The notes beneath the pieces were generated by a model. The model had not been told where the DNA came from. It saw only the letters and a program-made list of their open reading frames with translations, and searched no databases. Positions 7,131 to 37,466 of a stretch of 64,000 nucleotides of DNA are shown here, piece by piece. Positions within the stretch are counted from its first letter, which is position 1, and each line of letters starts with the position of its first letter. The position numbers and the translations under genes are program-made. Source of the stretch: Dehalococcoidia bacterium (GTDB lineage Bacteria > Chloroflexota > Dehalococcoidia > Lucifugimonadales > JAGWBF01); the NCBI GenBank assembly GCA_965224415.1, contig CBDCZB010000004.1, positions 801,660 to 865,659 of the forward strand. Reading direction: 5' to 3'.

Positions 7131-7191
7131 GCCTCCGGCGCCCAGCAAAGAAAAAGCCCGCTGTCGGCTGCCCAGCCTAAGGCAGGTTTCT

Positions 7192-7277
7192 TGGTGCCGA
7201 GGGAGGGACTCGAACCCACACGCCCTCGCGGGCAGCGGATTTTAAGTCCGCCGCGTCTGCCGTTCCGCCACCTCGGC
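7192..7277 (-). tRNA. tRNA-Leu (anticodon TAA)
   Basis: Reverse complement gives GCCGAGG acceptor, anticodon loop CTTAAAA, long variable arm, GGTTCGAGTCC T-arm and encoded CCA. Confidence 0.9.
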
Positions 7278-7339
7278 ATCCCTGCTCAGAGAAAAAACAA
7301 GCGCAGGAATGAGTTCCTACGCTTTTGTCTGCGAAAAAT

Positions 7340-7415
7340 TGGAGGCGACGGGCGGATTCGAACCGCCGAATAGAGGTTTTGCAGACCTCCGCCTTAACCA
7401 CTTGGCTACGTCGCC
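7340..7415 (-). tRNA. tRNA-Cys (anticodon GCA)
   Basis: Reverse complement folds by hand: acceptor GGCGACG/CGTCGCC, anticodon stem GAGGT/ACCTC with loop CTGCAAA, T-arm GGCGG-TTCGAAT-CCGCC, and CCA. Confidence 0.9.
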
Positions 7416-7431
7416 CTGTCCTTAACCGAAA

Positions 7432-7518
7432 TGGTGCCGAGGGCGGGATTTGAACCCACACAGGCTTACGCCTACCACCCCCTCAAGATGGCGTGTCTAC
7501 CAATTCCACCACCTCGGC
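7432..7518 (-). tRNA. tRNA-Leu (anticodon GAG)
   Basis: Reverse complement GCCGAGGTGGTGGAATTGGTAGACAC..., anticodon loop TTGAGGG, long variable arm, GGTTCAAATCC T-arm and CCA. Confidence 0.9.
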
Positions 7519-7592
7519 AGGAATCCATATTTTACCACATTCTCCCGGAGTTTCCAGTATTCGGGCATCGAGAGCGAAGAACGGCCGCAGCC

Positions 7593-8765
7593 TCACTGGG
7601 CCCGCCCCACGCCGGGGAAGGCGGGCATAACCTCTTTGGAGATGCGGGCCGCCTGCTCGTGGAACTGCTCCATCGTGGTCCCCATGGGACAGGCTATCAT
7701 TATCTGGTCCAGCCCCGGGTACTTGTCCTCCACTTCCTTGAGATAGGCGATAGTGTCCTCGGGGCTGCCACAGAACCAGGCCCGGGTCTTCAGAACATCT
7801 TCAAAGTCGCTGCTTGCGGCAATATGGCGGGCGGCCCCAGAGGGACCCACGGCTTCCATCTGTTCGTCGCTGTACCGGAGCATTCCCAGGGGCGCCGCGA
7901 ACTTCACGTGTTCCTCGAACAGAGGCCTCAGCCGGTCCTTTGCTCTCTCGTAGCTGTCGTCCACCTGGCACCATATTCCCAGCGCCAGGCCCTCACCCAG
8001 ATCGGTCTCCCGCCCATACTTGGCGTTGGCCTTCTGGTACTCGTGAATCCATCCGTCCACGTGGTCTATGGCAGTGCCGGCAATTATCCCCTTGATGCCG
8101 TGCTTGGCCATGAAATCCAAACCTCTGGGAGACCCGCTGACCACCGGCTGCCACATTTCCACTGGAGTGTTGATGGGCCTGGGCACCAGGGTAAGCTCCT
8201 TTAGCTGGTAGCCCCTGTAAGGAACCTCCGGAGGCAGCGTGTAGTTCTTTCCCTGGTGGGAAAAGGAGTCGTTGTTGAAAGCGGTCAATATCACTTCCAG
8301 CTGCTCTTCGAACAGGTCCCGGTTGGCGTCGGCGTCCAGCATGGGTGCGCCGAAGGTCTCCACCTCCCGGGTGTGGTAGCCGCGGCCCACGCCGAATATT
8401 ACCCTGCCATCGGTAAGCACGTCGGCCATGGCGAAGTCCTCGGCCAGGCGGATGGGGTGCCACATGGGAAGGATGTTGAACGCGCAACCCAACTTTATCT
8501 TAGTGGTGTGTTGAGCCAGCCAGACGTTGAGCATCAGCAGGTTGGGAATGCACTCGTACCCCTCCCGCTGGAAGTGGTGCTCGGCCATCCACAGAACGTC
8601 GTAGCCCAGCTCCTCAGTGACCTGGGCCGTCCTCTTCGCCATGTCGAAGACCTGAATAAGCCGCTCGTTGGAATAGCGGCGGTCGTTGGCCGGAGTGCCG
8701 TCTAAGCCGACGTTGTCCCCTTCCAGCACATGGCCTGCATATAGAGTAGAGAATGACTTAATCAT
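7593..8765 (-). CDS. LLM-class (luciferase-like) flavin-dependent oxidoreductase
   Basis: 390-aa ORF with a GGGAGG RBS. Motifs LWMAEHHFQREGYECIPN and GRVIFGVGRGYH are typical of the luciferase-like monooxygenase family. Confidence 0.85.
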   Translation of the reverse strand: MIKSFSTLYAGHVLEGDNVGLDGTPANDRRYSNERLIQVFDMAKRTAQVTEELGYDVLWMAEHHFQREGYECIPNLLMLNVWLAQHTTKIKLGCAFNILPMWHPIRLAEDFAMADVLTDGRVIFGVGRGYHTREVETFGAPMLDADANRDLFEEQLEVILTAFNNDSFSHQGKNYTLPPEVPYRGYQLKELTLVPRPINTPVEMWQPVVSGSPRGLDFMAKHGIKGIIAGTAIDHVDGWIHEYQKANAKYGRETDLGEGLALGIWCQVDDSYERAKDRLRPLFEEHVKFAAPLGMLRYSDEQMEAVGPSGAARHIAASSDFEDVLKTRAWFCGSPEDTIAYLKEVEDKYPGLDQIMIACPMGTTMEQFHEQAARISKEVMPAFPGVGRAQ

Positions 8766-8795
8766 GTTTGCCTCCCTTAGCGGCGGCTCCTGCGC

Positions 8796-9590
8796 TTATT
8801 GGTCTTTGTACGCCGTAACTCTGAGACGGCGGTAGTCGGCGGTCCAAAGGCCGTCATGGAACATCACCGGCCTGAGCCGAGATTCGACCTCTGAAACCAC
8901 CCGCTCCCGTAACTCGTCAGGCAGATGCACCAGAAGCTCGGCCCCAAACATGGACATCCAGTGGCGCATCCCATTGGGCCCGTCTTCCAACGGAGTGGGG
9001 CGGTCGAAAAGGGCCGCATAGCCCGTGACTATGCATCTCTCCTCCAGCCGCGACGTGAAGTCGGCAACGCTGGGGAAGTACCAGGGCAGGCCCTGTCCGG
9101 GGCGGGCATGCCCCACCGCGTCCAGGGCCTGGTCCACCGCTCTGATGATGGCAGCGATGTTCCCCTTGCCGCCCAACTCCACCACCAGGCGTCCCCCAGG
9201 CTTCAGGACGTCGCCCAGGGTGGCCATGACTCCGTGCGTGTCCTTCACCCAGTGGATGGCGGCGTTGGAGAAGACGGCGTCGAAGGGCTCACTGCACGTG
9301 AAACGGGCGGCGTCGGCCACCACAAACTCCACGTCTGGATAGGCGACTCTTGCCCGCTCTATCATGGAAGGGTCGATGTCCACGCCGACCGCCTGGGCGC
9401 CTGCCTTGGAGATCTCGTTGGCCAACCGCCCAGTGCCGCATCCCAGGTCCAGGATGCGCTCGCCGGGCTGCGGGGCCAACATCTCCACCAACTCCAGCCC
9501 ATACTCCGAAACGAAAGCGTGCTTGGAGTCGTAGAGGTCGGCGTCCCATGCGCCGACAGTGGTCTGGGTTGGGTTGGACTGGTCGTTCAT
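8796..9590 (-). CDS. Class I SAM-dependent methyltransferase
   Basis: Motif I ILDLGCGTGRL and a post-I acidic residue (GVDIDPSM). Resembles the trans-aconitate/UbiE-like small-molecule MTase layout. Confidence 0.8.
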   Translation of the reverse strand: MNDQSNPTQTTVGAWDADLYDSKHAFVSEYGLELVEMLAPQPGERILDLGCGTGRLANEISKAGAQAVGVDIDPSMIERARVAYPDVEFVVADAARFTCSEPFDAVFSNAAIHWVKDTHGVMATLGDVLKPGGRLVVELGGKGNIAAIIRAVDQALDAVGHARPGQGLPWYFPSVADFTSRLEERCIVTGYAALFDRPTPLEDGPNGMRHWMSMFGAELLVHLPDELRERVVSEVESRLRPVMFHDGLWTADYRRLRVTAYKDQ

Positions 9591-27173: not shown

Positions 27174-28361
27174 ATGCACATGGAGTTCACCCCGGAGCAA
27201 GAAGCCTTTCGCCAGGAGATAAAGGACTTCTTCAAAGAAACGCTGCCTGCCGACTTCGAGCCTATGGATTCCGGGGCCATGTACCATGCCGACACCCGGG
27301 AGTTTGCCCACAACATGGCCAAGAAGCTGTCCGCAAAGGGATGGCTCACTATGCACTGGCCCATCGAGTACGGAGGCCAGAGCAGGTCCTACATCGAACA
27401 GGCCATATACAGTGACGAGGTGGCCTATCACGGTTCTCCCGGCACCGATGTTGGCGGAGGGGCCGTGGCCTGGATTGGGCCGACCATCATACGATTCGGC
27501 ACCGAGGAGCAAAAGAAGGAACACCTGCCCCCGATCACCAGAGCAGAGAAGTATTGGACCACGCTGTACAGCGAACCGGAGACCGGCTCCGACCTGGCCG
27601 GACTGATAACCTCGGCCACCGAAGATGGCGACGAATACGTAATCAACGGGTCCAAGATATGGAACTCAGGCGCCCACATCGCCGACTGGGGCTGGATAGC
27701 CGTCAGGACCAACCCCGACGCTCCCAAGCACCGGGGTATAAGCCTGATGATGGTGGACATGACGACCCCCGGAATCACCGTCCGGCCCGTCATAAAGATG
27801 ACCGGCGAACATGAGTTCAACCAAGTCTACTTTGACAACGTCCGGGTGCCCAAGAAGAACCTCATCGGAGAGCAGGACCGGGGCTGGTACACAATGGCGG
27901 TGGCTCTGGACTTCGAGCGGGCCGGAGTCCACTACTCTTCGAACGGCAGAAGGAACCTGGAGCGCCTGGTGGAGTACGCCAGGGAGACCAACTACAACGG
28001 CAAGCCTCTTTCGCAGAATAAAGTCGTCCGAAACAAGCTCGTGAACCTGGCCGTCGAGATACAGGCCTCCCGATGGATTGCCTACAGAGTCGCCTGGATG
28101 CAGGGCCAGGGCCAGGTGCCCAACTACGAGGCGTCGATGTCCAAGGTATTCGGCTCAGAGTTGCAGCAGAAGGTGGCCAACACAGGCATGGAAATCCTGG
28201 GCCAGTACGGGCAGCTATGGAAGAACTCCAAGTGGGTTAAGCTCCGGGGCAGCCTCTCCAGGGCGTATCTCAACCAATTCGGTGCGAACATCGCCGGCGG
28301 AACGGGCGAGATACAGCGGAACATCATAGCCACCAGGGGCTTGGGACTGCCCCGCCAGTAG
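27174..28361 (+). CDS. Acyl-CoA dehydrogenase family protein (tandem paralogue 3 of 3)
   Basis: 395 aa with the same motifs as paralogues 1 and 2. Confidence 0.85.
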   Translation: MHMEFTPEQEAFRQEIKDFFKETLPADFEPMDSGAMYHADTREFAHNMAKKLSAKGWLTMHWPIEYGGQSRSYIEQAIYSDEVAYHGSPGTDVGGGAVAWIGPTIIRFGTEEQKKEHLPPITRAEKYWTTLYSEPETGSDLAGLITSATEDGDEYVINGSKIWNSGAHIADWGWIAVRTNPDAPKHRGISLMMVDMTTPGITVRPVIKMTGEHEFNQVYFDNVRVPKKNLIGEQDRGWYTMAVALDFERAGVHYSSNGRRNLERLVEYARETNYNGKPLSQNKVVRNKLVNLAVEIQASRWIAYRVAWMQGQGQVPNYEASMSKVFGSELQQKVANTGMEILGQYGQLWKNSKWVKLRGSLSRAYLNQFGANIAGGTGEIQRNIIATRGLGLPRQ

Positions 28362-28395
28362 GGTCAACGCGGGATTAGATTTATAGGGGGCGGCA

Positions 28396-29553
28396 ATGTC
28401 ATATAAGGAACTTCGGGGCAAAGTAGCCATCGTCGGCGCTGATGAAGCCGACGAAAACGGCGTCCAGCCCAACAAGTCGGTCTTGCAACTCCACGCCGAA
28501 GGCGCGGTGAACGCCATGCACGACGCCGGCCTGAAAAAGAGCGACATTGACGGCCTCTTCACGGCCGGCACCAACGCCGCTGTCCTGGCCGAATACCTGG
28601 GCATGAGGCCCCGGTATGTCGACGGCACGACTGTGGGAGGCTGCTCCTTCGTGATTATGATGGAGCACGCCATGTTGGCCCTTGAACATGGAATGTGCGA
28701 CTACGCCCTCATCAGCCACGGCCAGAGCGGACGCAGCCGCATCGGAGAACCCCGCGCCCCCGTGGACCCATCCACGCCCGCAGGCCAGTTCGAGCAGCCC
28801 TTCGGAGCCCTTGGCCCTCCTACTCTGTTCTCGATGCCCATCCTCAGGTACATGAAGGAGACGGGAACCACTCTGGAGAACCTGGCCGAGGTGGCAGTGG
28901 CCACCCGAAAATGGGCCAGCCTCAATCCCAGGGCCATAATGCGGGAACCCCAGACCGTCGACGACGTGCTCAGCGCCCGGATGATATGCTACCCCCTCAC
29001 CTTGCCCATGTGCTGCCTGGTCACCGACGCTGCAGGATCAGTCATACTCACCACCGCCGACCGGGCCAAGGACTTGAAGCAGAAGCCAGTCTATCTGCTG
29101 GGGACGGGAGAGGCCCTAAGCCACTGGAGCATAGGACAGATGCCCGACTTCACCTGGTCCCACGCCTTCGAGACATCGGGCCAACGGGCTTTCGACATGG
29201 CAGGCGTAAAGCACGAGGACATTGATGTCGTGGAGTTTTACGACGCCTTCGTCCACACCCCCATCTTTGCCATCGAGGCGCTGGGGTTCTGCCCCAGAGG
29301 TGAGGGCGGTAGATTCGTTTCGGGCCAGAGGACCGCTCCCGGCGGAGAGTTCCCGATGAACACCAACGGCGGCGGCCTCTCCTACACCCACCCGGGGATG
29401 TACGGGATGTTCATCATACTGGAGGCCGTACGCCAGCTCCGGAGCCAGGGCGGAGACCGCCAGGTGGAGGGCGCCAAGACAGCCGTAGTGCATGGGCCGG
29501 GCGGAATGTTCGCCGCCTCTGGGACTGCCATTCTTGGCGTTGAGGTGCCGTAA
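28396..29553 (+). CDS. Thiolase-like / lipid-transfer (Ltp-type) protein
   Basis: VAIVGADEADE N-terminus, CCLVTDAAGSVILT, NTNGGGLSYTHPG. Followed by a DUF35 gene. Confidence 0.75.
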   Translation: MSYKELRGKVAIVGADEADENGVQPNKSVLQLHAEGAVNAMHDAGLKKSDIDGLFTAGTNAAVLAEYLGMRPRYVDGTTVGGCSFVIMMEHAMLALEHGMCDYALISHGQSGRSRIGEPRAPVDPSTPAGQFEQPFGALGPPTLFSMPILRYMKETGTTLENLAEVAVATRKWASLNPRAIMREPQTVDDVLSARMICYPLTLPMCCLVTDAAGSVILTTADRAKDLKQKPVYLLGTGEALSHWSIGQMPDFTWSHAFETSGQRAFDMAGVKHEDIDVVEFYDAFVHTPIFAIEALGFCPRGEGGRFVSGQRTAPGGEFPMNTNGGGLSYTHPGMYGMFIILEAVRQLRSQGGDRQVEGAKTAVVHGPGGMFAASGTAILGVEVP

Positions 29554-30368: not shown

Positions 30369-31547
30369 CTAACCGCGGCGGCGGAGGGGGGCGCTGGCCT
30401 CGTGCAGGAACCCCAGTATCTCCCGGTAGGAGCGGACCACGCCCGTTTCGTAGAACTCGACGGATCGGCTGTTGCAGAAGTCCCGAATCACTCCCTGGGC
30501 TTCCTTGAACTTGTTGCGGGGCATGTTGGGGAAGAGGTGGTGCTCAATCTGGTAGTTGAGGCCGCCGTACACAAAGTCGTTGACCACGCTGCCGGTCACG
30601 TTACGGGTGGTGAGCACCTGTCTGCGGAAAAAGTCCAGCTTGGTGTTCTTGTCCACCATCAACATGCCCTTGTGGTTGGTGGCGAAAATGGACCCCAGGT
30701 ACACGCCAAGAAGCCCCTGGTGCAGCAGGAAGAAGTAGAGGCTGTCCATTCCTCCGATGTGCCAGAAGACTAGGTAGCAGTACACGGGCAGGTGGCCGAA
30801 GACCAGCAGGGCTTCCAGAAACAGGTACTTGACGTTCTTGCCCCGCAAGATGTACTGGCCGCTGTCGGCCCGTATGCTGTATGCCTCTACCAGAAGCAGC
30901 GGGAAGAACAGGAAAGCCTGGTATCGCACTATCCACCTGGCGATCCCCGTCTTGCTCAGGGACTGCTCCTCGGTGAAGGCTATGATGGGCAGGTTCACGT
31001 CGAAGTCGGTGTCTACGTTGTTGGGACTGGCGTGGTGGCGGTTGTGCTTGTCCATCCACCAGCTGCGGTCCAGCCCGATGAGAATCCCGACCATCAGCGA
31101 GACGGCGTCGTTTTTTACTGGAGACTTGAACATCTGACGATGGCCGGAGTCGTGGGCCAGCAACCCCAGCTGGCCGAAGGCAAAGGCCATGAAAACGGCG
31201 TTGAGGAGATGAATCCAGAGAGCGTCGGCAATGATGAGGATGACCACGCTTGCGCCGAGGATGGCCAGGGTTAGGGGAATCTTGAAGGCGTAGTACCCGT
31301 ACTGCCGGTCCAGCAGCCCTCGTTCCGTTACGATACGCTTGAGGGCAATGTAGTCGTCTTCGCCCGTATAGCGGCCCCCTGCGCCGTTGGATTCAATTGC
31401 CGGGGTGGACATGGGCGGCGCCTGGCCGTCTGAAGGTACGGCCCGCCCAACATCCGGCGCTATGTCTATACGTACTGTGTCTGTGGAATCTGTCATGCGT
31501 GACCTTAAGGGCTTGTGGGGAACAATTGTATCCGAGGGTGAAGCCAA
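30369..31547 (-). CDS. Membrane fatty-acid desaturase
   Basis: Three His boxes: HDSGHRQ, HNRHHASPN, QIEHHLFP. The start is uncertain (TTG 31547 in the ORF track, or ATG 31496 MTDSTD). Confidence 0.85.
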   Translation of the reverse strand: MASPSDTIVPHKPLRSRMTDSTDTVRIDIAPDVGRAVPSDGQAPPMSTPAIESNGAGGRYTGEDDYIALKRIVTERGLLDRQYGYYAFKIPLTLAILGASVVILIIADALWIHLLNAVFMAFAFGQLGLLAHDSGHRQMFKSPVKNDAVSLMVGILIGLDRSWWMDKHNRHHASPNNVDTDFDVNLPIIAFTEEQSLSKTGIARWIVRYQAFLFFPLLLVEAYSIRADSGQYILRGKNVKYLFLEALLVFGHLPVYCYLVFWHIGGMDSLYFFLLHQGLLGVYLGSIFATNHKGMLMVDKNTKLDFFRRQVLTTRNVTGSVVNDFVYGGLNYQIEHHLFPNMPRNKFKEAQGVIRDFCNSRSVEFYETGVVRSYREILGFLHEASAPLRRRG

Positions 31548-31803: not shown

Positions 31804-32097
31804 ATGCCGATAGAAGACCAGGCCTTTAAGTTCTCGACAAGGTGTGACCAGCCGCTAACCGCGGACTATTTGGAGCAGCTGGCTAAACACATCAGGAGCG
31901 GCCATTTACAGCTTTCAGCGGGGTCGGAAAGCATAGGGCTGACCGTCGTAGGGGAAATCAAGCTGGAGATTGCCGCTGAATCAAGGCTTGGGGAAGGGAA
32001 AAACAGCCTCCGCCTCGAACTCTCGTGGGAAGTCCCCATACCTCCCAAGCAAGAGCCACAGATCCGCATTGAGGGCAGCTCACCTGCTGCTGACTGA
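31804..32097 (+). CDS. Hypothetical protein (possibly amphi-Trp domain type)
   Basis: 97-aa ORF whose second half, GEIKLEIAAESRLGEGKNSLRLELSWE, resembles the beta-rich ...ELELKW pattern of amphi-Trp domain proteins. Weak. Confidence 0.35.
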   Translation: MPIEDQAFKFSTRCDQPLTADYLEQLAKHIRSGHLQLSAGSESIGLTVVGEIKLEIAAESRLGEGKNSLRLELSWEVPIPPKQEPQIRIEGSSPAAD

Positions 32098-32455: not shown

Positions 32456-32782
32456 CTATCCCAGCGCCGAATCTATCTTCTTCTGCAGGGTCCCCTTGGG
32501 CACGGCGCCTACGATTTGATCCACCGGCTGTCCGTCTTTGAACAACAGCAAAGTCGGTATGCTGCGTATACCGTATGCCATAGCGGTCCGGGGGTTGGAG
32601 TCCACGTCCACTTTGGCGAATTCCACTTTGCCGTCGTATTCGTTGGACAATTCGTCGACTATGGGCGCGACCATCTTGCAGGGCATGCACCAGTCAGCCC
32701 AGAAGTCCACCAGAACGGGCAACTCGGACTTCACGACCTTTTCATCAAAGTCCGCATCGGTCACTGCAACAGGTCCAGCCAT
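32456..32782 (-). CDS. trxA: Thioredoxin
   Basis: 108 aa with WADWCMPCKM active site and the cis-Pro region SIPTLLLF. Confidence 0.9.
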   Translation of the reverse strand: MAGPVAVTDADFDEKVVKSELPVLVDFWADWCMPCKMVAPIVDELSNEYDGKVEFAKVDVDSNPRTAMAYGIRSIPTLLLFKDGQPVDQIVGAVPKGTLQKKIDSALG

Positions 32783-32958
32783 CTATGTCTCCTTCGTAGG
32801 TGGACGTTCCTTTGGAACGCTGACGCCGTACTCACCTCAAGGTGGATTGGGTACAAGGTCAAGTGTATACGCCCCCCTTGTTTGGGTCAACCTACCGGGG
32901 TCCCGCTGCCTTGGCGCTTTCGCACGGTTGGGTTTATAGTGAGCGCCGGAGCAAGCCC

Positions 32959-34788
32959 ATGACCAAGACCAACCGCATAGGCCAACGGCTCACCGTAGAC
33001 CTGATACGCTGGGGCGATTCGGGAGATACGATAGCCCACTTAGACGGCGAGGATCTCCACGTCCTAGGAGGAATCCCAGGAGAGGAAGCTGTCGTCGAAA
33101 TTATCCGAGACCGGAAAGGGAGGGTTGCAGCCCAGGTGATGCAGACCCTAACTGAGTCCCCTGACCGGAGACTTCCGCCTTGTCCCTACTTCGGCCCTTG
33201 CACCGGGTGCCAGTGGCAGCACGTCGAGTACCGTCGCCAGCTAGAGATTAAGCGAGAAGCGGTGATAGCGGCCCTCGCCCAGGTCGGTCTGCCGGAAGCT
33301 CCGGTCGCGCCCACATTGGCCTCGCCGGAGGAGTTCGACTACCGGAACCACGCCCGTTTCACCGTCGGGCGAAAGTGGGGAGAGCTTGGTTTTGTCAACC
33401 GTGAGAGCAGGCGATTTATTCCGGTAACAAGCTGCATGTTGATGCAGCCTTGGATCAACCAAACGCTGGCCCACCTGCAGCGCAAGGCTGCCGAGACCTC
33501 TCAACTGTCCATCAGGTACGGGATGGAGTCGGGCGACTACCTGATACAGCCCCGGCTGAAGAACCCGGACATCGAGGTTGAATCGGGCCAGCCGCACTAC
33601 ACCGACATCATAGAGGGCCGCAGATTCCGGGTCGCAGCCTCTTCATTCTTCCAGGTGAACCCCAAGCAGGCGGAAGCTCTTGCCCGTCTTGTGAGAGACG
33701 GCCTGCGGCTCACCGGACAAGAGACGGTGGTGGACGCCTACGCTGGCGTCGCCGCCTTTGCCGTACTTGTGGCTGACCGCTGCCGCAGAGTCATCGCCAT
33801 CGAGGAATCGGCGTCGGCCATTAAAGACGCCGAGAGCAATATCGGAGGAGTGGACAACATAGAGTTGGTCCAAGCCAAGACGGAGGATGTCCTCGGCGGG
33901 ATGTCTCACCCGCCGGACGGCGTGGTCCTGGACCCGCCAAGGGCCGGCTGCCATCCCAGGGTACTGGATGCCCTCACTGACCTCAAACCCCGCCGTATTG
34001 TCTACGTTTCTTGCGAACCCGCCACGTTGAGCAGAGACTTGGCGGCTCTGTGCCAAGGGCCTTTCCAGCTGGAGTCAGTCCAGCCCGTGGATATGTTCCC
34101 CCAGACCCACCACGTGGAATGTGTGGCCGTGCTGGCCCTCCGAGACTCGGCGCCACAACCCAACGAGCCGGCCGTGAACCTTGTCCCCGTCCTCGCATCC
34201 ACGTCCCCACGCCGCAGGGAGCTTATGAGGCGAATGGGGAAAGCTTTTGACGTTGCGTGTCCCTCCGTCAACGAGGACGCTCTGCCCGGGGAGTCACCGT
34301 CTCACTTAGTGGAGCGGCTGGCTCTGGCAAAGGCCCGAAGCGTTCACGGCGACCAGTGCGACAGAGTCGTAATCGGGGCCGACAGTGTGGTGGTTCTGGA
34401 CGACCGGATTCTTGGCAAACCCGGAAGTTCGGACGACGCCCGCTCCATGCTGACGGCGTTGAGGGGCCGGGATCACGAGGTTTACACCGGAGTGGCCGTC
34501 GTAGGGCCAAATGGTGAAGCGGTTTCCAGCAAACGCAGCCGAGTCGTGATGCGGGAATACTCCGATGCGGAGATGGAGGCCTACGTCCTCTCAGGAGAGC
34601 CGATGGACAAGGCGGGCGGCTATGCCATACAAGACCAACACTTCCGCCCAGCTTCTCTTTTGGAAGGCTGTTACAATAACGTCATGGGGCTGCCCACCTG
34701 CCTGCTGGCGGACATGCTGGTCAAAGCGGGGTTGCCGCCTCACACGGTGGAGCGTCCGCCGGAATGCGCAAATTGCCCGGTAGAGTGA
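32959..34788 (+). CDS. Fusion protein: RlmD/RumA-family (uracil-5-)-RNA methyltransferase + Maf nucleoside-triphosphate pyrophosphatase
   Basis: The N-terminal ~430 aa carry a TRAM-like start, the Fe-S Cys cluster CPYFGPCTGCQWQH, SAM motif VVDAYAGVAAF and the catalytic region YVSCEP. There is no stop before the Maf module LASTSPRRRELM...GADSVVVLDDRILGKP...DKAGGYAIQD...NVMGLP. I checked codon by codon across the junction (34141..34260). Confidence 0.7.
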   Translation: MTKTNRIGQRLTVDLIRWGDSGDTIAHLDGEDLHVLGGIPGEEAVVEIIRDRKGRVAAQVMQTLTESPDRRLPPCPYFGPCTGCQWQHVEYRRQLEIKREAVIAALAQVGLPEAPVAPTLASPEEFDYRNHARFTVGRKWGELGFVNRESRRFIPVTSCMLMQPWINQTLAHLQRKAAETSQLSIRYGMESGDYLIQPRLKNPDIEVESGQPHYTDIIEGRRFRVAASSFFQVNPKQAEALARLVRDGLRLTGQETVVDAYAGVAAFAVLVADRCRRVIAIEESASAIKDAESNIGGVDNIELVQAKTEDVLGGMSHPPDGVVLDPPRAGCHPRVLDALTDLKPRRIVYVSCEPATLSRDLAALCQGPFQLESVQPVDMFPQTHHVECVAVLALRDSAPQPNEPAVNLVPVLASTSPRRRELMRRMGKAFDVACPSVNEDALPGESPSHLVERLALAKARSVHGDQCDRVVIGADSVVVLDDRILGKPGSSDDARSMLTALRGRDHEVYTGVAVVGPNGEAVSSKRSRVVMREYSDAEMEAYVLSGEPMDKAGGYAIQDQHFRPASLLEGCYNNVMGLPTCLLADMLVKAGLPPHTVERPPECANCPVE

Positions 34789-34792
34789 TGCA

Positions 34793-35065
34793 TTGAACTT
34801 TTTCGGAATGGGGCCCTTCGAGCTTCTGGTGGTCATGGCCGTTGCCCTGGTGGTGCTGGGGCCAGGGAAGACCATCGGAATGGCCCGAACCGTAGGCAAA
34901 GTGTTCGGGGAGGTGCGTCGCGCATTCACCGACCTTTCCAGAATGGCCGAGGAAGAGGAACGGAACATAAACCAAGAGCCCCCTTCTAACCGTCAGACCG
35001 GCGCCGAAGACGGCGCACCCGCCAGACAAGCCGCCAAGGACTCGGAGGCTGAGGAGGAGCGTTGA
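34793..35065 (+). CDS. Twin-arginine translocase TatA/TatB-family protein
   Basis: FGMGPFELLVVMAVALVVLGPGK TM-hinge motif followed by an amphipathic helix and an acidic tail. 4-nt overlap with tatC. TTG start (or ATG 34808). Confidence 0.8.
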   Translation: MNFFGMGPFELLVVMAVALVVLGPGKTIGMARTVGKVFGEVRRAFTDLSRMAEEEERNINQEPPSNRQTGAEDGAPARQAAKDSEAEEER

Positions 35066-35817
35066 GGGACCAAGAACAGTCCCTGACTGCGCACTTTCGA
35101 GACCTCCGCAAAAGGGTCCTCATATCCGGTGCAACGGTGGTGATTACTACCATCGTGGCCTTCAGTTTTCACCAGCAGATAATCGAGGCGCTGCTGGAGC
35201 CGGTGGGGTTGGAAGCTGCCACGGGAGGCGAGGCCGGCCTGATCTCTACGGAGTTGACCGAGACGTTGGGCGTCACTCTCAAGGTGTCCTTCGTGGCGGG
35301 CCTGGTGGGCGCCTTCCCGATGGTGCTGTACCAGATAATCCTGTTCGTCGCCCCTGGTTTGACGCCCAGGGAACGCCGGTACCTGTTCTCCTTCATTCCT
35401 GGGGCCGCGCTTGCCTTTGCGGGAGGCGCAGTCTTCGCGTACTACGTGCTGATTCCCCGGGCTATCGATTTTCTCATCGGATGGGGAACAGACCTGGCCA
35501 CACCGCAGATCCGCATATCCAACTCGGTGAGCATCGTAGTGAGGCTGCTGTTCTGGATGGGCGTAGTGTTCGAGACGCCCTTCGTGATGTTCCTGCTGGC
35601 AAAGCTTGGAATAGTCTCGGCCAAAGGTTTCGCCAGATGGCGGCGCCATTGGATTGTCGTGGCGTTCATCATAGGCGCCTTCATCACGCCCACCATCGAT
35701 CCCATCAGCCAGTCTCTGGTGGCGGCGCCCTTAATTCTCCTCTACGAGGGGGGCATCCTTCTGGCCAAGTTTGCAGCCAGGGGCCGCGAGCCTGCCCCGG
35801 AACCCGCGGGATCATAA
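35062..35817 (+). CDS. tatC: Twin-arginine translocase subunit TatC
   Basis: 251 aa and six predicted TM segments. LTAHFRDLRKRV N-terminus and a PGL..RE motif (VAPGLTPRERRY) are typical of TatC. Confidence 0.9.
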   Translation: MRDQEQSLTAHFRDLRKRVLISGATVVITTIVAFSFHQQIIEALLEPVGLEAATGGEAGLISTELTETLGVTLKVSFVAGLVGAFPMVLYQIILFVAPGLTPRERRYLFSFIPGAALAFAGGAVFAYYVLIPRAIDFLIGWGTDLATPQIRISNSVSIVVRLLFWMGVVFETPFVMFLLAKLGIVSAKGFARWRRHWIVVAFIIGAFITPTIDPISQSLVAAPLILLYEGGILLAKFAARGREPAPEPAGS

Positions 35818-35856: not shown

Positions 35857-36741
35857 TCACCAGTTTCTTAGGATGTGGTCCGCTATGTCTATAGCGATAG
35901 GAGCCCCTCGTTGATTACTGGCGGCAAAAAACAGCTCGAACATTGGGGAGTTTTTGGAGTTTGTAAACGCCCGACTGGTAGGAGCGATTTCAACGAACAC
36001 GGATTTCAGTCGGTCTCGATATAGACCGGCTATCTGCTCGACGCCAGACCGTCTTTCTTGCCTAGGTTCCTCGTCGAAGAAAGACAGCTGTGGAGAAGGG
36101 CTATACATGGTTTCCCAGTATTGACGGCCTCCGAAGATCCTGTCTAATCGGCTTGCTAATTGTGGAGATGGCTCACTACCTCTGGGCATCATCCGGGAAA
36201 TAGCCATTAACGGGAACAATATCCAGCAATCAACCCTTTCAGTCCAAGCCAGCGTTTCCATGGTTTCCCAGGAAACCTCAGTCGCAAACGGGTCCAAGAA
36301 CACAACTGCACAATCTAGAGCATGTAACTCGCCACAGAACTCAACCAACGCCGGATTGGCGTCTTCGTTTCTCACGGAGATGTCTCGCTTCGGATATTCC
36401 GTCCTCAACTGCTCCAGTGAATCTGAGCGACCTCGGTCCTTTTCGACGAATACGAGTTGGTCGAAGGGTTTGTCGTGTATTCCTAAAGCGATTCTTGGCG
36501 ACCCGTTATGCAACTCTCGGAAGTCATCATAGTCGTCGTATCCGTACCCTGAAGGCAGATGGAATGACCCTTCTCCAGCAAATGCATCAACGTAAATCAA
36601 ACGAAACTGAGTGTTCTTCAACGCAGTGGTGTAGGCGTCCAGATATCGCCTGAGTATTTCCAATTTTTCCAGCGTCCATTGTCCGCCGAAAGACATTTGG
36701 GCCACGGAACTTATTAAACTCCGACCGGCATTTGGCGCCAT
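35857..36741 (-). CDS. Three-Cys-motif partner protein TcmP-like (RsmD-like methyltransferase fold suspected)
   Basis: GGQWTLEKLEILRRYLDAYTTAL...LIYVDAFAGEGSF...FVEKD...VVFLDPFA. Matches my recollection of the TcmP family that pairs with Gp37/Gp68 proteins. 28-nt overlap with the upstream DUF5131 gene. Confidence 0.65.
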   Translation of the reverse strand: MAPNAGRSLISSVAQMSFGGQWTLEKLEILRRYLDAYTTALKNTQFRLIYVDAFAGEGSFHLPSGYGYDDYDDFRELHNGSPRIALGIHDKPFDQLVFVEKDRGRSDSLEQLRTEYPKRDISVRNEDANPALVEFCGELHALDCAVVFLDPFATEVSWETMETLAWTERVDCWILFPLMAISRMMPRGSEPSPQLASRLDRIFGGRQYWETMYSPSPQLSFFDEEPRQERRSGVEQIAGLYRDRLKSVFVEIAPTSRAFTNSKNSPMFELFFAASNQRGAPIAIDIADHILRNW

Positions 36742-37466
36742 CGAACGCCGTCTATGATGGCGGCATCACCGCCACGTTTTTTTCTCACCCCGCCAAGCTG
36801 TTTCAGGAAAAACGGCACACCCGCGTGGGTCGATTGGCTAAGCAGATCGCGCGCCCAGTCCAGATCCATGCCCCTTGCGCCCGGCCCGCTTTCCCCACCG
36901 ACTATTACCCACTGCAATGACCCAGCTGAAAGCCACGGACTCAAGTCGATCCGTTCCAGCAACGGCTCAGCGGACACGAACCGTATCGACGCGGGAAGAC
37001 GAGCCAGCACAGTTAGTCTGGGAGCGTATTTCTGGCTTTCGACTGAAGTCCCAATCCACACGTTGGGCGGCCAACCATTCAGAACGCTCTGTCCGCTCCT
37101 TTGCCACCAAGCCACAGCACGGCCAGGTCTCTTAGTCAAGACTTGGAACACGTGGCCATGCGTGGATGCGGCCTCATTCATCACTGAGAACATGTCATCT
37201 ATGAAGCTGAAAGGGACGTCCGGGTGGAACACATCGGCCATGCTATTCACGAAGACATGACGCGGTTTTTTCCAAGACAACGGCGCCATCAATCGCTCAG
37301 GCAAAAGTCGGACATCATCAGGAGCCGTTTCATAACCATGTACTCCCATTGCCCTCAGACGAGGGTATAGAGCAAACATGTAGCAGTGGTCGCAACCAGG
37401 AGACACTCTGCTGCACCCGGTCACCGGGTTCCAGGTTTCATCCGTCCATTCGATCGTGGATGGCAT
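36714..37466 (-). CDS. DUF5131 (phage Gp37/Gp68 family) three-Cys-motif protein
   Basis: IEWTDETWNPVTGCSRVSPGCDHCYM N-terminus (C-x5-C-x2-C), with ...VFVNSMADVFH, WIGTSVE and VSAEPLL...IVGGESGPGARGMD matching the Gp37/Gp68 family layout. Confidence 0.8.
   Translation of the reverse strand: MPSTIEWTDETWNPVTGCSRVSPGCDHCYMFALYPRLRAMGVHGYETAPDDVRLLPERLMAPLSWKKPRHVFVNSMADVFHPDVPFSFIDDMFSVMNEAASTHGHVFQVLTKRPGRAVAWWQRSGQSVLNGWPPNVWIGTSVESQKYAPRLTVLARLPASIRFVSAEPLLERIDLSPWLSAGSLQWVIVGGESGPGARGMDLDWARDLLSQSTHAGVPFFLKQLGGVRKKRGGDAAIIDGVRWRQMPVGV

Follow-up and report, generated by a model that had tools for sequence, protein, structure and literature searches.

The subject of this analysis is one gene in a stretch of 64,000 nucleotides (nt) of DNA from a Dehalococcoidia bacterium (contig CBDCZB010000004.1 of assembly GCA_965224415.1, positions 801,660 to 865,659 of the forward strand), which is called the window in what follows. 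In a single open reading frame (ORF) the gene encodes a predicted RNA methyltransferase of the RumA/RlmD type, which would make 5-methyluridine (m5U), followed by a predicted Maf nucleoside triphosphate (NTP) pyrophosphatase. The protein is best read as a single chain of two enzymes, independent of each other and both catalytically competent, that a flexible tether connects; the union would serve the co-expression of an m5U writer with an enzyme that disposes of free m5U nucleotides. This explanation as a whole is held with moderate confidence. Its parts differ in strength: it is very probable that the protein is bifunctional, with both halves active, and the m5U-sanitising logic stands at roughly even chances.

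The fusion gene and its two halves

The gene and the parts of its protein (residues are numbered in amino acids, aa) are laid out as follows.

32911..32940, plus strand: promoter-like site TTGGCG-18-TATAGT, a weak match to the consensus only, inside the extension from GTG 32842
32959..34788, plus strand: whole fusion gene, RlmD-type m5U methyltransferase plus Maf; 609 codons and a TGA stop (34786-34788)
32983..33156, plus strand: TRAM-like N-terminal beta-barrel, presumed RNA-binding (aa 9-66)
33157..33573, plus strand: central domain with four predicted [4Fe-4S] cysteines, C75, C81, C84 and C159 (aa 67-205)
33574..34143, plus strand: predicted uracil-C5 methyltransferase catalytic domain, dependent on S-adenosylmethionine (SAM) (aa 206-395)
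34144..34185, plus strand: inter-module linker, RDSAPQPNEPAVNL, disordered by the confidence scores of the structure model (aa 396-409)
34174..34176, plus strand: internal GTG (V406), a proposed independent Maf start, not conserved
34186..34728, plus strand: predicted Maf NTP pyrophosphatase module, YhdE subfamily (aa 410-590)
34669..34776, plus strand: four extra cysteines, C571, C581, C603 and C606 (C-x9-C-x21-C-x2-C), in the Maf module and behind it; a candidate metal site

Both the ORF listing and the raw sequence give an open frame on the plus strand that is uninterrupted from GTG 32842 or ATG 32959 to 34788. An earlier note on this DNA had described one ORF without a stop between a RumA-like and a Maf module, and the description stands. 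The junction sequence, HHVECVAVLALRDSAPQPNEPAVNLVPVLASTSPRRRELM, is identical to the reading given there, and the motifs that it named are all present (the Fe-S cysteines C75/C81/C84/C159, D259/G263, YVSCEP, SPRR, GADSVV..GKP, DKAGGYAIQ and NVMGLP). Translation likely starts at ATG 32959. This is the first codon in 80 of 120 aligned family sequences, a set that comprises the window protein and 119 relatives and underlies all such counts below. GGAG lies 8 nt 5′ of it, and it is favoured over GTG 32842 because the promoter-like site sits inside the GTG extension. GTG 32842 was ruled out as the true start, since homologues mostly begin at the ATG and both GGAG and the promoter-like site lie between the two codons. 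The internal GTG 34174 had been thought to allow separate translation of Maf. It too was ruled out, and is probably not a functional start: V406 is Ile in the near relatives P0006 and P0007 and lacks an equivalent residue in more distant fusions, and no Shine-Dalgarno-like sequence was found upstream of the codon. No second copy of either module occurs in the window.

An apparent fusion of separate genes could also stem from a missed stop, from a frameshift or from chimeric assembly at the junction. The window is one unverified sequence. In L015, a related long-read metagenome-assembled genome (MAG), a frameshift does fall within the Maf part of the fused ORF (~7610), where it is probably an assembly error. 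Comparison with relatives reduces this explanation to a negligible probability. Eight relatives at 82-98% identity include six of exactly 609 aa, one of 597 aa and one 519-aa partial, and among close relatives the junction differs by substitutions only. Neither a stop nor a frameshift separates the modules, and the close relatives share the fusion. Seventeen GTDB genomes, from a scan of species representatives for RlmD/Maf loci and with L015 among them, carry both modules in frame with no intervening stop; all are labelled Dehalococcoidia or Chloroflexota MAGs. The earlier note had called for a search of other genomes for the same architecture. Among 5.8 billion proteins such a search listed 120 clusters, and at least that many exist. 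All 120 have both Pfam domains, come from Dehalococcoidia/Chloroflexota MAGs, share 50-98% identity with the query and are ~600-700 aa long, save one partial. The artefact is rejected because the same uninterrupted ORF recurs in well over 100 independently assembled sequences.

The N-terminal half (aa 1-395) matches the Pfam model tRNA_U5-meth_tr (PF05958) at aa 223-392 (E 2e-17, 63.5 bits against a cut-off of 23) and the NCBIfam model TIGR00479 rumA (294 bits against 183.55). The stricter RlmD model PRK13168 gives 220 bits, under its cut-off of 458. No other methyltransferase family scores above its Pfam cut-off in the fusion protein. In the phmmer alignment, residues 9-70 lie opposite residues 15-~75 of the RumA chain, in its N-terminal part, and the AlphaFold2 (AF2) model places five beta-strands in residues 10-65. 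The Pfam TRAM model has no match in the window protein and scores in some homologues. The Foldseek alignment of the N-terminal half takes in essentially all of the RumA chain, with target-normalised template-modelling (TM) scores of 0.76-0.78 to RlmCD and RumA; the tRNA-U54 methyltransferase of P. abyssi matches equally well (TM 0.76).

The active-site residues agree with this assignment. C75, C81, C84 and C159 align with four RumA cysteines, which we take to be the Fe-S ligands Cys81/87/90/162. They are invariant in all 120 sequences of the forward family (methyltransferase first, Maf second), and a [4Fe-4S] cluster is predicted from their alignment. SAM and uracil motifs are found as FFQVN, D259/G263, E282 and DPPR 325-328. 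The nucleophile C352 (nt 34012-34014) lies in YVSCEP, aligned to SCNP of RumA, and the general base E387 in HHVECV, aligned to HLES; their RumA counterparts are presumably Cys389 and Glu424. Both are invariant (120/120), and the remaining methyltransferase motif residues are invariant or nearly so. By profile, by nucleophile and base, and by the four cysteines, the half is assigned to the RumA/RlmD family. Its RNA target would be 23S rRNA U1939 and/or U747, or possibly tRNA U54. The comparisons do not single out one of these: the U1939-specific RlmD model PRK13168 stays below its cut-off, and RlmCD, an enzyme for U747 and U1939, and the tRNA-U54 enzyme match about equally.

The C-terminal half (aa 410-590) matches Pfam Maf (PF02545) at aa 411-589 (E 6e-54, 182.9 bits against 27) and NCBIfam TIGR00172 maf (152.1 bits against 117.15). 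Its target-normalised TM scores to B. subtilis Maf and E. coli YhdE are 0.88-0.90 (Foldseek). The universal Maf motif S-R-E-K-D-K, represented in YhdE by Ser10, Arg13, Glu33, Lys52, Asp70 and Lys82 (PMC3899018), is complete: S416, R419, E445, K458, D475 (nt 34381-34383) and K487 are conserved in 119, 119, 101, 120, 120 and 120 of the 120 aligned sequences, respectively. A second motif separates the subfamilies, R-T-Q in YhdE (Arg12, Thr71, Gln153) and W-Q-E in YceF (PMC3899018). The window protein has R418, S476 and Q558. Position 2 is Ser in 84 of the 120 sequences and Thr in 36; the Gln of the YceF type never occurs. This half is thus classed as a YhdE-type Maf, with R-T-Q and a conservative Thr-to-Ser exchange, and not as a YceF type. 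Because the catalytic residues are invariant or nearly so in the 120 sequences, both halves are taken to be under purifying selection for catalysis.

Four additional cysteines stand at and beyond the end of the Maf module, in the context EGCY...PTC...PECANCP. Three of them, C571, C581 and C603, do not vary among the 120 sequences. At the fourth position, C606, 113 sequences have Cys and five have His, an exchange of the pattern typical of metal ligands, and the four residues may form a Zn or Fe-S site. Neither E. coli YhdE nor B. subtilis Maf carries a Cys where C571 and C581 align. To our knowledge, such a site has been described for no Maf. It also occurs in unfused Dehalococcoidia Maf, and would therefore predate the fusion.

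The AF2 model, built on a 71-sequence alignment, has a mean predicted local distance difference test (pLDDT) score of 89.4 and a predicted TM score (pTM) of 0.67; each half is modelled with confidence. Residues 398-406 fall below pLDDT 50, and the disordered linker spans ~10-14 residues in the window protein. Across the family the interval from E387 to S414 is between 16 and 42 aa long, shows no conservation and has many A/S/P/G/R residues. Foldseek returned no PDB chain that spans both halves. The model is consistent with two globular enzymes on a flexible tether, without a confidently fixed orientation.

Distribution and origin of the fusion

The fused state is that of the majority of sampled Dehalococcoidia species. 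Adjacent, separate rlmD and maf genes are found in six genomes: L017, L018 (SAR202), L019, L020, L026 and L042. Stop and start codons overlap in two of them (GTGA in L026, ATGA in L042); spacers of ~26-130 nt and own start codons are seen in L017, L018, L019 and L020. L042 (Dehalococcoidales), at 35% identity more divergent than any other member, has the two genes unfused. A 1.7-kb insertion (7168-8860) splits rlmD from maf in L016, a Lake Baikal Dehalococcoidia MAG; it appears to encode a membrane protein. Rough neighbour-joining (NJ) trees drawn for each half agree broadly with each other, and fused and unfused forms interleave on them. At ~54 RlmD loci outside Dehalococcoidia, no Maf gene lies within 6 kb. 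Since some sister lineages keep adjacent separate genes, two of them with stop-start overlaps, the fusion probably arose from translationally coupled rlmD-maf neighbours.

The same two families are also joined in the opposite order. Searched exhaustively with phmmer, 1.84 billion cluster representatives yielded ~7 full-length clusters with the architecture of the window protein, and proteins of ~640 aa in which the N-terminus matches the Maf half of the query and the C-terminus its methyltransferase half. Seven representatives have the Pfam layout Maf(2-185)-[TRAM]-tRNA_U5-meth_tr(445-637). Examples are P0171, P0178, P0182, P0207, P0229, P0233, P0254, P0273 and OGC04858.1, and the loci L081 and L082 (5001-6881). 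A further search brought up at least 120 clusters, and each of the 120 listed carries the two domains. By NCBI names at least five lineages are represented (Saganbacteria/WOR-1, Omnitrophica, Aminicenantes/Acidobacteriota, Ratteibacteria and Clostridiales). In 123 of 123 reverse fusions the Maf half carries the signature R-T-Q, and the Fe-S cysteines, the nucleophile Cys and the base Glu are invariant. Their RlmD half is 25-30% identical to that of the window protein (34% in one partial alignment); unfused RlmDs (~400 aa) are 42-53% identical to it. In one WOR-1 genome the gene is flanked by glnA and leuS, and neither trx nor tat genes occur in its vicinity. The opposite order, the low RlmD identity and the unrelated gene context mark the reverse-order family as an independent fusion event, so that the two families have been fused at least twice. 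Recurrent fusion with the same Maf subfamily is the strongest evidence that sequence comparison offers for a functional link.

In Dehalococcoidia the fusion gene stands among the following neighbours.

32456..32782, minus strand: thioredoxin gene (trx), divergent upstream neighbour (Pfam Thioredoxin, E 2e-34)
34793..35065, plus strand: tatA (Pfam TatA_B_E), 5-20 nt after the fusion stop, a position kept in related loci
35062..35817, plus strand: tatC (Pfam TatC, E 4e-62), overlapping the tatA stop codon

The order of trx on one strand and rlmD, maf, tatA and tatC on the other is kept in fused and unfused genomes alike (window 32456-35817; L001-L023 and L042). An opposite-strand thioredoxin gene precedes the fusion in 13 of 17 fused loci; in L021 a trx homologue lies further upstream on the same strand. 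tatC follows rlmD/maf in the 22 fused or adjacent Dehalococcoidia loci scored, the partial L026 excepted, and none was detected in L016, where rlmD and maf are apart. Because no terminator-like site was found between the fusion gene and tatA, the two may be co-transcribed.

Gene order is generally stable in Dehalococcoidia, and adjacency alone is therefore weak evidence for a functional link. A neutral origin has to be weighed here: coupled neighbours may have merged by stop loss or a 1-nt frame change, harmlessly, with Maf serving housekeeping or cell division, RlmD serving rRNA, and the two activities unrelated. Such an origin would suit a class-wide frozen set of trx, rlmD, maf, tatA and tatC, which includes tatAC without a known m5U link. 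It would also suit the unconserved, disordered linker with no confidently predicted domain orientation, the interleaving of fused and unfused states, the tolerance of a 1.7-kb insertion between the genes in L016, and the impossibility of substrate channelling (discussed below). It does not readily account for the reverse fusion, which is independent, occurs in several unrelated phyla and has a different gene context, nor for the use in both fusions of a YhdE Maf (m5UTP/dTTP-type) and not a YceF Maf (m7GTP-type). The lack of Maf near the ~54 RlmD loci of other phyla implies that the pairing is no common accident of gene order, and Maf is associated with methyltransferases in eukaryotes and archaea as well (PMC3899018). 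A neutral merger is accordingly regarded as doubtful.

Other genes of the window lie outside this cluster. Convergent to tatC is a pair that resembles a two-gene cassette, at 35857-36741 and 36714-37466 on the minus strand. One ORF encodes a DUF5131 protein (phage Gp37/Gp68-like, Pfam E 3e-80), the other a protein of 294 aa without a Pfam match, and the two ORFs share 28 nt. A 97-aa ORF with an Amphi-Trp domain (PF20068, E 3e-11; 31804-32097, plus strand) lies between a fatty-acid desaturase gene (30369-31547, minus strand) and the thioredoxin gene. Further upstream are tandem acyl-CoA dehydrogenase and thiolase-like genes (27174-29553, plus strand), a lipid/beta-oxidation-like neighbourhood unrelated to the fusion.

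Functional reading of the fusion

YhdE-type Maf hydrolyses dTTP, UTP, m5UTP and pseudo-UTP in vitro to the monophosphate and pyrophosphate (PMC3899018). In Arabidopsis, RNA turnover is the main source of free 5-methyluridine; unless this nucleoside is degraded, it is misincorporated into RNA and growth is impaired (PMC10415118). For the bacterial fusion the following course is proposed. (i) The ancestor would have been a coupled rlmD-maf pair inside the stable trx / rlmD maf tatA tatC cluster of the class Dehalococcoidia. (ii) Stop loss or a frame change at the junction would have merged the genes, and the variable linker would be a remnant of the old junction. (iii) The N-terminal enzyme would act on a structured RNA, flip a specific uridine out of it and convert this to m5U with SAM, with Cys352 as nucleophile and Glu387 as base. 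(iv) The Maf enzyme, with Asp475 as general base, Glu445 as metal ligand and Lys458, Lys487 and Arg419 as triphosphate clamp, would convert dTTP, UTP and preferentially m5UTP and pseudo-UTP to the monophosphate and pyrophosphate. (v) m5U nucleotides from RNA turnover that are re-phosphorylated by salvage kinases would be kept from random insertion by RNA polymerase. (vi) Fusion would fix the m5U writer and the remover of free m5UTP in 1:1 amounts and couple their expression and inheritance.

Substrate channelling has no place in this scheme. It is impossible because the product of the methyltransferase is RNA and not a nucleotide, and the fusion cannot channel m5UTP because RNA decay yields monophosphates or nucleosides that need re-phosphorylation. 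The earlier note had Maf act on m5UTP released by the decay of m5U-containing RNA. The substrates that it gave for the YhdE type agree with the literature (PMC3899018); the word 'released' was imprecise, since decay gives monophosphates and nucleosides. The flexible linker and the uncertain orientation of the domains likewise favour co-expression over channelling.

A Rosetta-stone comparison takes two proteins to be functionally linked when some genomes encode them fused and others encode them apart. The earlier proposal of such a link between the two activities is borne out by comparison only: the genes are fused in most Dehalococcoidia, adjacent in sister lineages and fused in reverse elsewhere, with a YhdE-type Maf in both fusions. 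Several points weigh against the m5U-sanitising explanation. The subfamily motif has Ser and not Thr at its second position, in the window protein and in most relatives. A flexible linker and the lack of a confident inter-domain arrangement offer no obvious kinetic benefit. Interleaving on the rough NJ tree implies that the fused state is not strictly required, and the cluster order conserved throughout could have kept maf beside rlmD as frozen synteny. Finally, YhdE also hydrolyses the canonical dTTP and UTP, and the only changes detected in E. coli in vivo concerned dTMP and UMP (PMC3899018), so that m5UTP may not be the physiological substrate.

A closer, physical coupling of the two enzymes can also be imagined. 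Maf would then work on or beside the RNA substrate, by proofreading the flipped base, by regulating the methyltransferase through nucleotide binding or by being delivered to the site of ribosome assembly, and the four-cysteine site, perhaps with thioredoxin, would add redox or metal control. A covalent linkage kept over deep divergence, the invariant extra cysteine motif in the Maf of the clade and thioredoxin as conserved divergent neighbour would fit such a role. Maf proteins are reported to dimerise via their C-terminal region (PMC3899018), which could dimerise the methyltransferase. Several findings make physical coupling distinctly improbable. The full pyrophosphatase catalytic set is invariant and argues for retained nucleotide hydrolysis; the linker interval of 16 to 42 aa holds no conserved element; and the AF2 model (pTM 0.67) has no confident fixed orientation. 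The cysteine motif is older than the fusion, being present in unfused Maf of the clade, and reverse-order fusions mostly have D and K/E/R at the positions of C571 and C581. The unfused state, moreover, is viable.

The co-expression and m5U-sanitising explanation can be extended, tentatively. In this extension, for which the odds are against rather than in favour, YhdE-type Maf would be a dedicated in vivo disposal enzyme for m5U nucleotides that co-evolves with m5U writers, and the four-cysteine site would add a metal or redox switch in Dehalococcoidia. If so, the genome would bear, in its two independent RlmD/Maf fusions, the mark of a write-and-sanitise pair that is obligatory, and the fusion proteins would offer a one-polypeptide system in which to prove the pairing. 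The physiological role of Maf is debated: the proteins were first regarded as cell-division inhibitors and later as in vitro hydrolases of modified nucleotides. For this unsettled in vivo role the fusion offers a simple, directly testable system. The prediction is that a point mutant with a dead Maf site would accumulate stray m5U in its RNA in a methyltransferase-dependent manner. Recurrent fusion in two orders is comparative evidence that m5U nucleotides concern bacteria in vivo, in parallel with the 5-methyluridine finding in plants.

Comparison with known systems

The methyltransferase half resembles the 23S rRNA m5U methyltransferases E. coli RumA/RlmD (1UWV, 2BH2) and S. pneumoniae RlmCD (5XJ1, 5ZQ0). 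Central and Rossmann catalytic domains are shared, as are a nucleophile Cys in SCxP and a general-base Glu, and the N-terminus of the window protein is TRAM-like. None of the solved proteins has a C-terminal Maf, and identity in the structural alignment is only ~25%. RlmCD lacks the Fe-S cysteines, whereas the window protein has them. The tRNA-U54 enzyme of P. abyssi (2JJQ) matches the window protein as well as RumA/RlmCD do.

The Maf half has the fold of E. coli YhdE (4P0E) and B. subtilis Maf (1EX2/4HEB), the complete S-R-E-K-D-K set, and R and Q at subfamily positions 1 and 3. It differs from them in its fusion to an RNA methyltransferase, in Ser for Thr at position 2, and in the invariant C-x9-C-x~21-C-x2-C motif, which neither of them has. 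The reverse-order fusions (OGC04858.1; P0171, P0273) unite the same two families in ~640 aa, with a YhdE-type Maf and intact catalytic residues. Their domain order is the opposite one, and their context is glnA/leuS in place of trx/tatAC.

Fusions of Maf to other methyltransferases are known. In eukaryotes, YhdE-like Maf domains such as that of human ASMTL are joined to a predicted methyltransferase, and in some archaea the two genes form a pair; this association was described as 'suggesting a functional relationship' (Tchigvintsev et al. 2013, PMC3899018). ASMTL (2P5X) is like the window protein in concept, as a Maf joined to a methyltransferase. Its Maf is N-terminal and its methyltransferase C-terminal, the opposite of the order in the window protein. 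The partner is ASMT-like (N-acetylserotonin O-methyltransferase-like), with no known RNA substrate, and not of the RumA type; in the window protein, by contrast, the product base of the predicted partner, m5U, is the base of the preferred in vitro substrate of Maf. Since the methyltransferase precedes Maf and belongs to PF05958, the window protein is not classed as a member of the ASMTL-type family.

No paper on an RlmD-Maf or RumA-Maf architecture was found in the literature. Database names cover one half of the protein, as 'RlmD' or 'hypothetical' at NCBI and 'dTTP/UTP pyrophosphatase' in UniRef, and a single JGI record is named 'RumA/MAF protein'. The link between Maf and methyltransferases has been known since 2013; what is new is an m5U writer as the predicted partner, in a fusion that has arisen twice.

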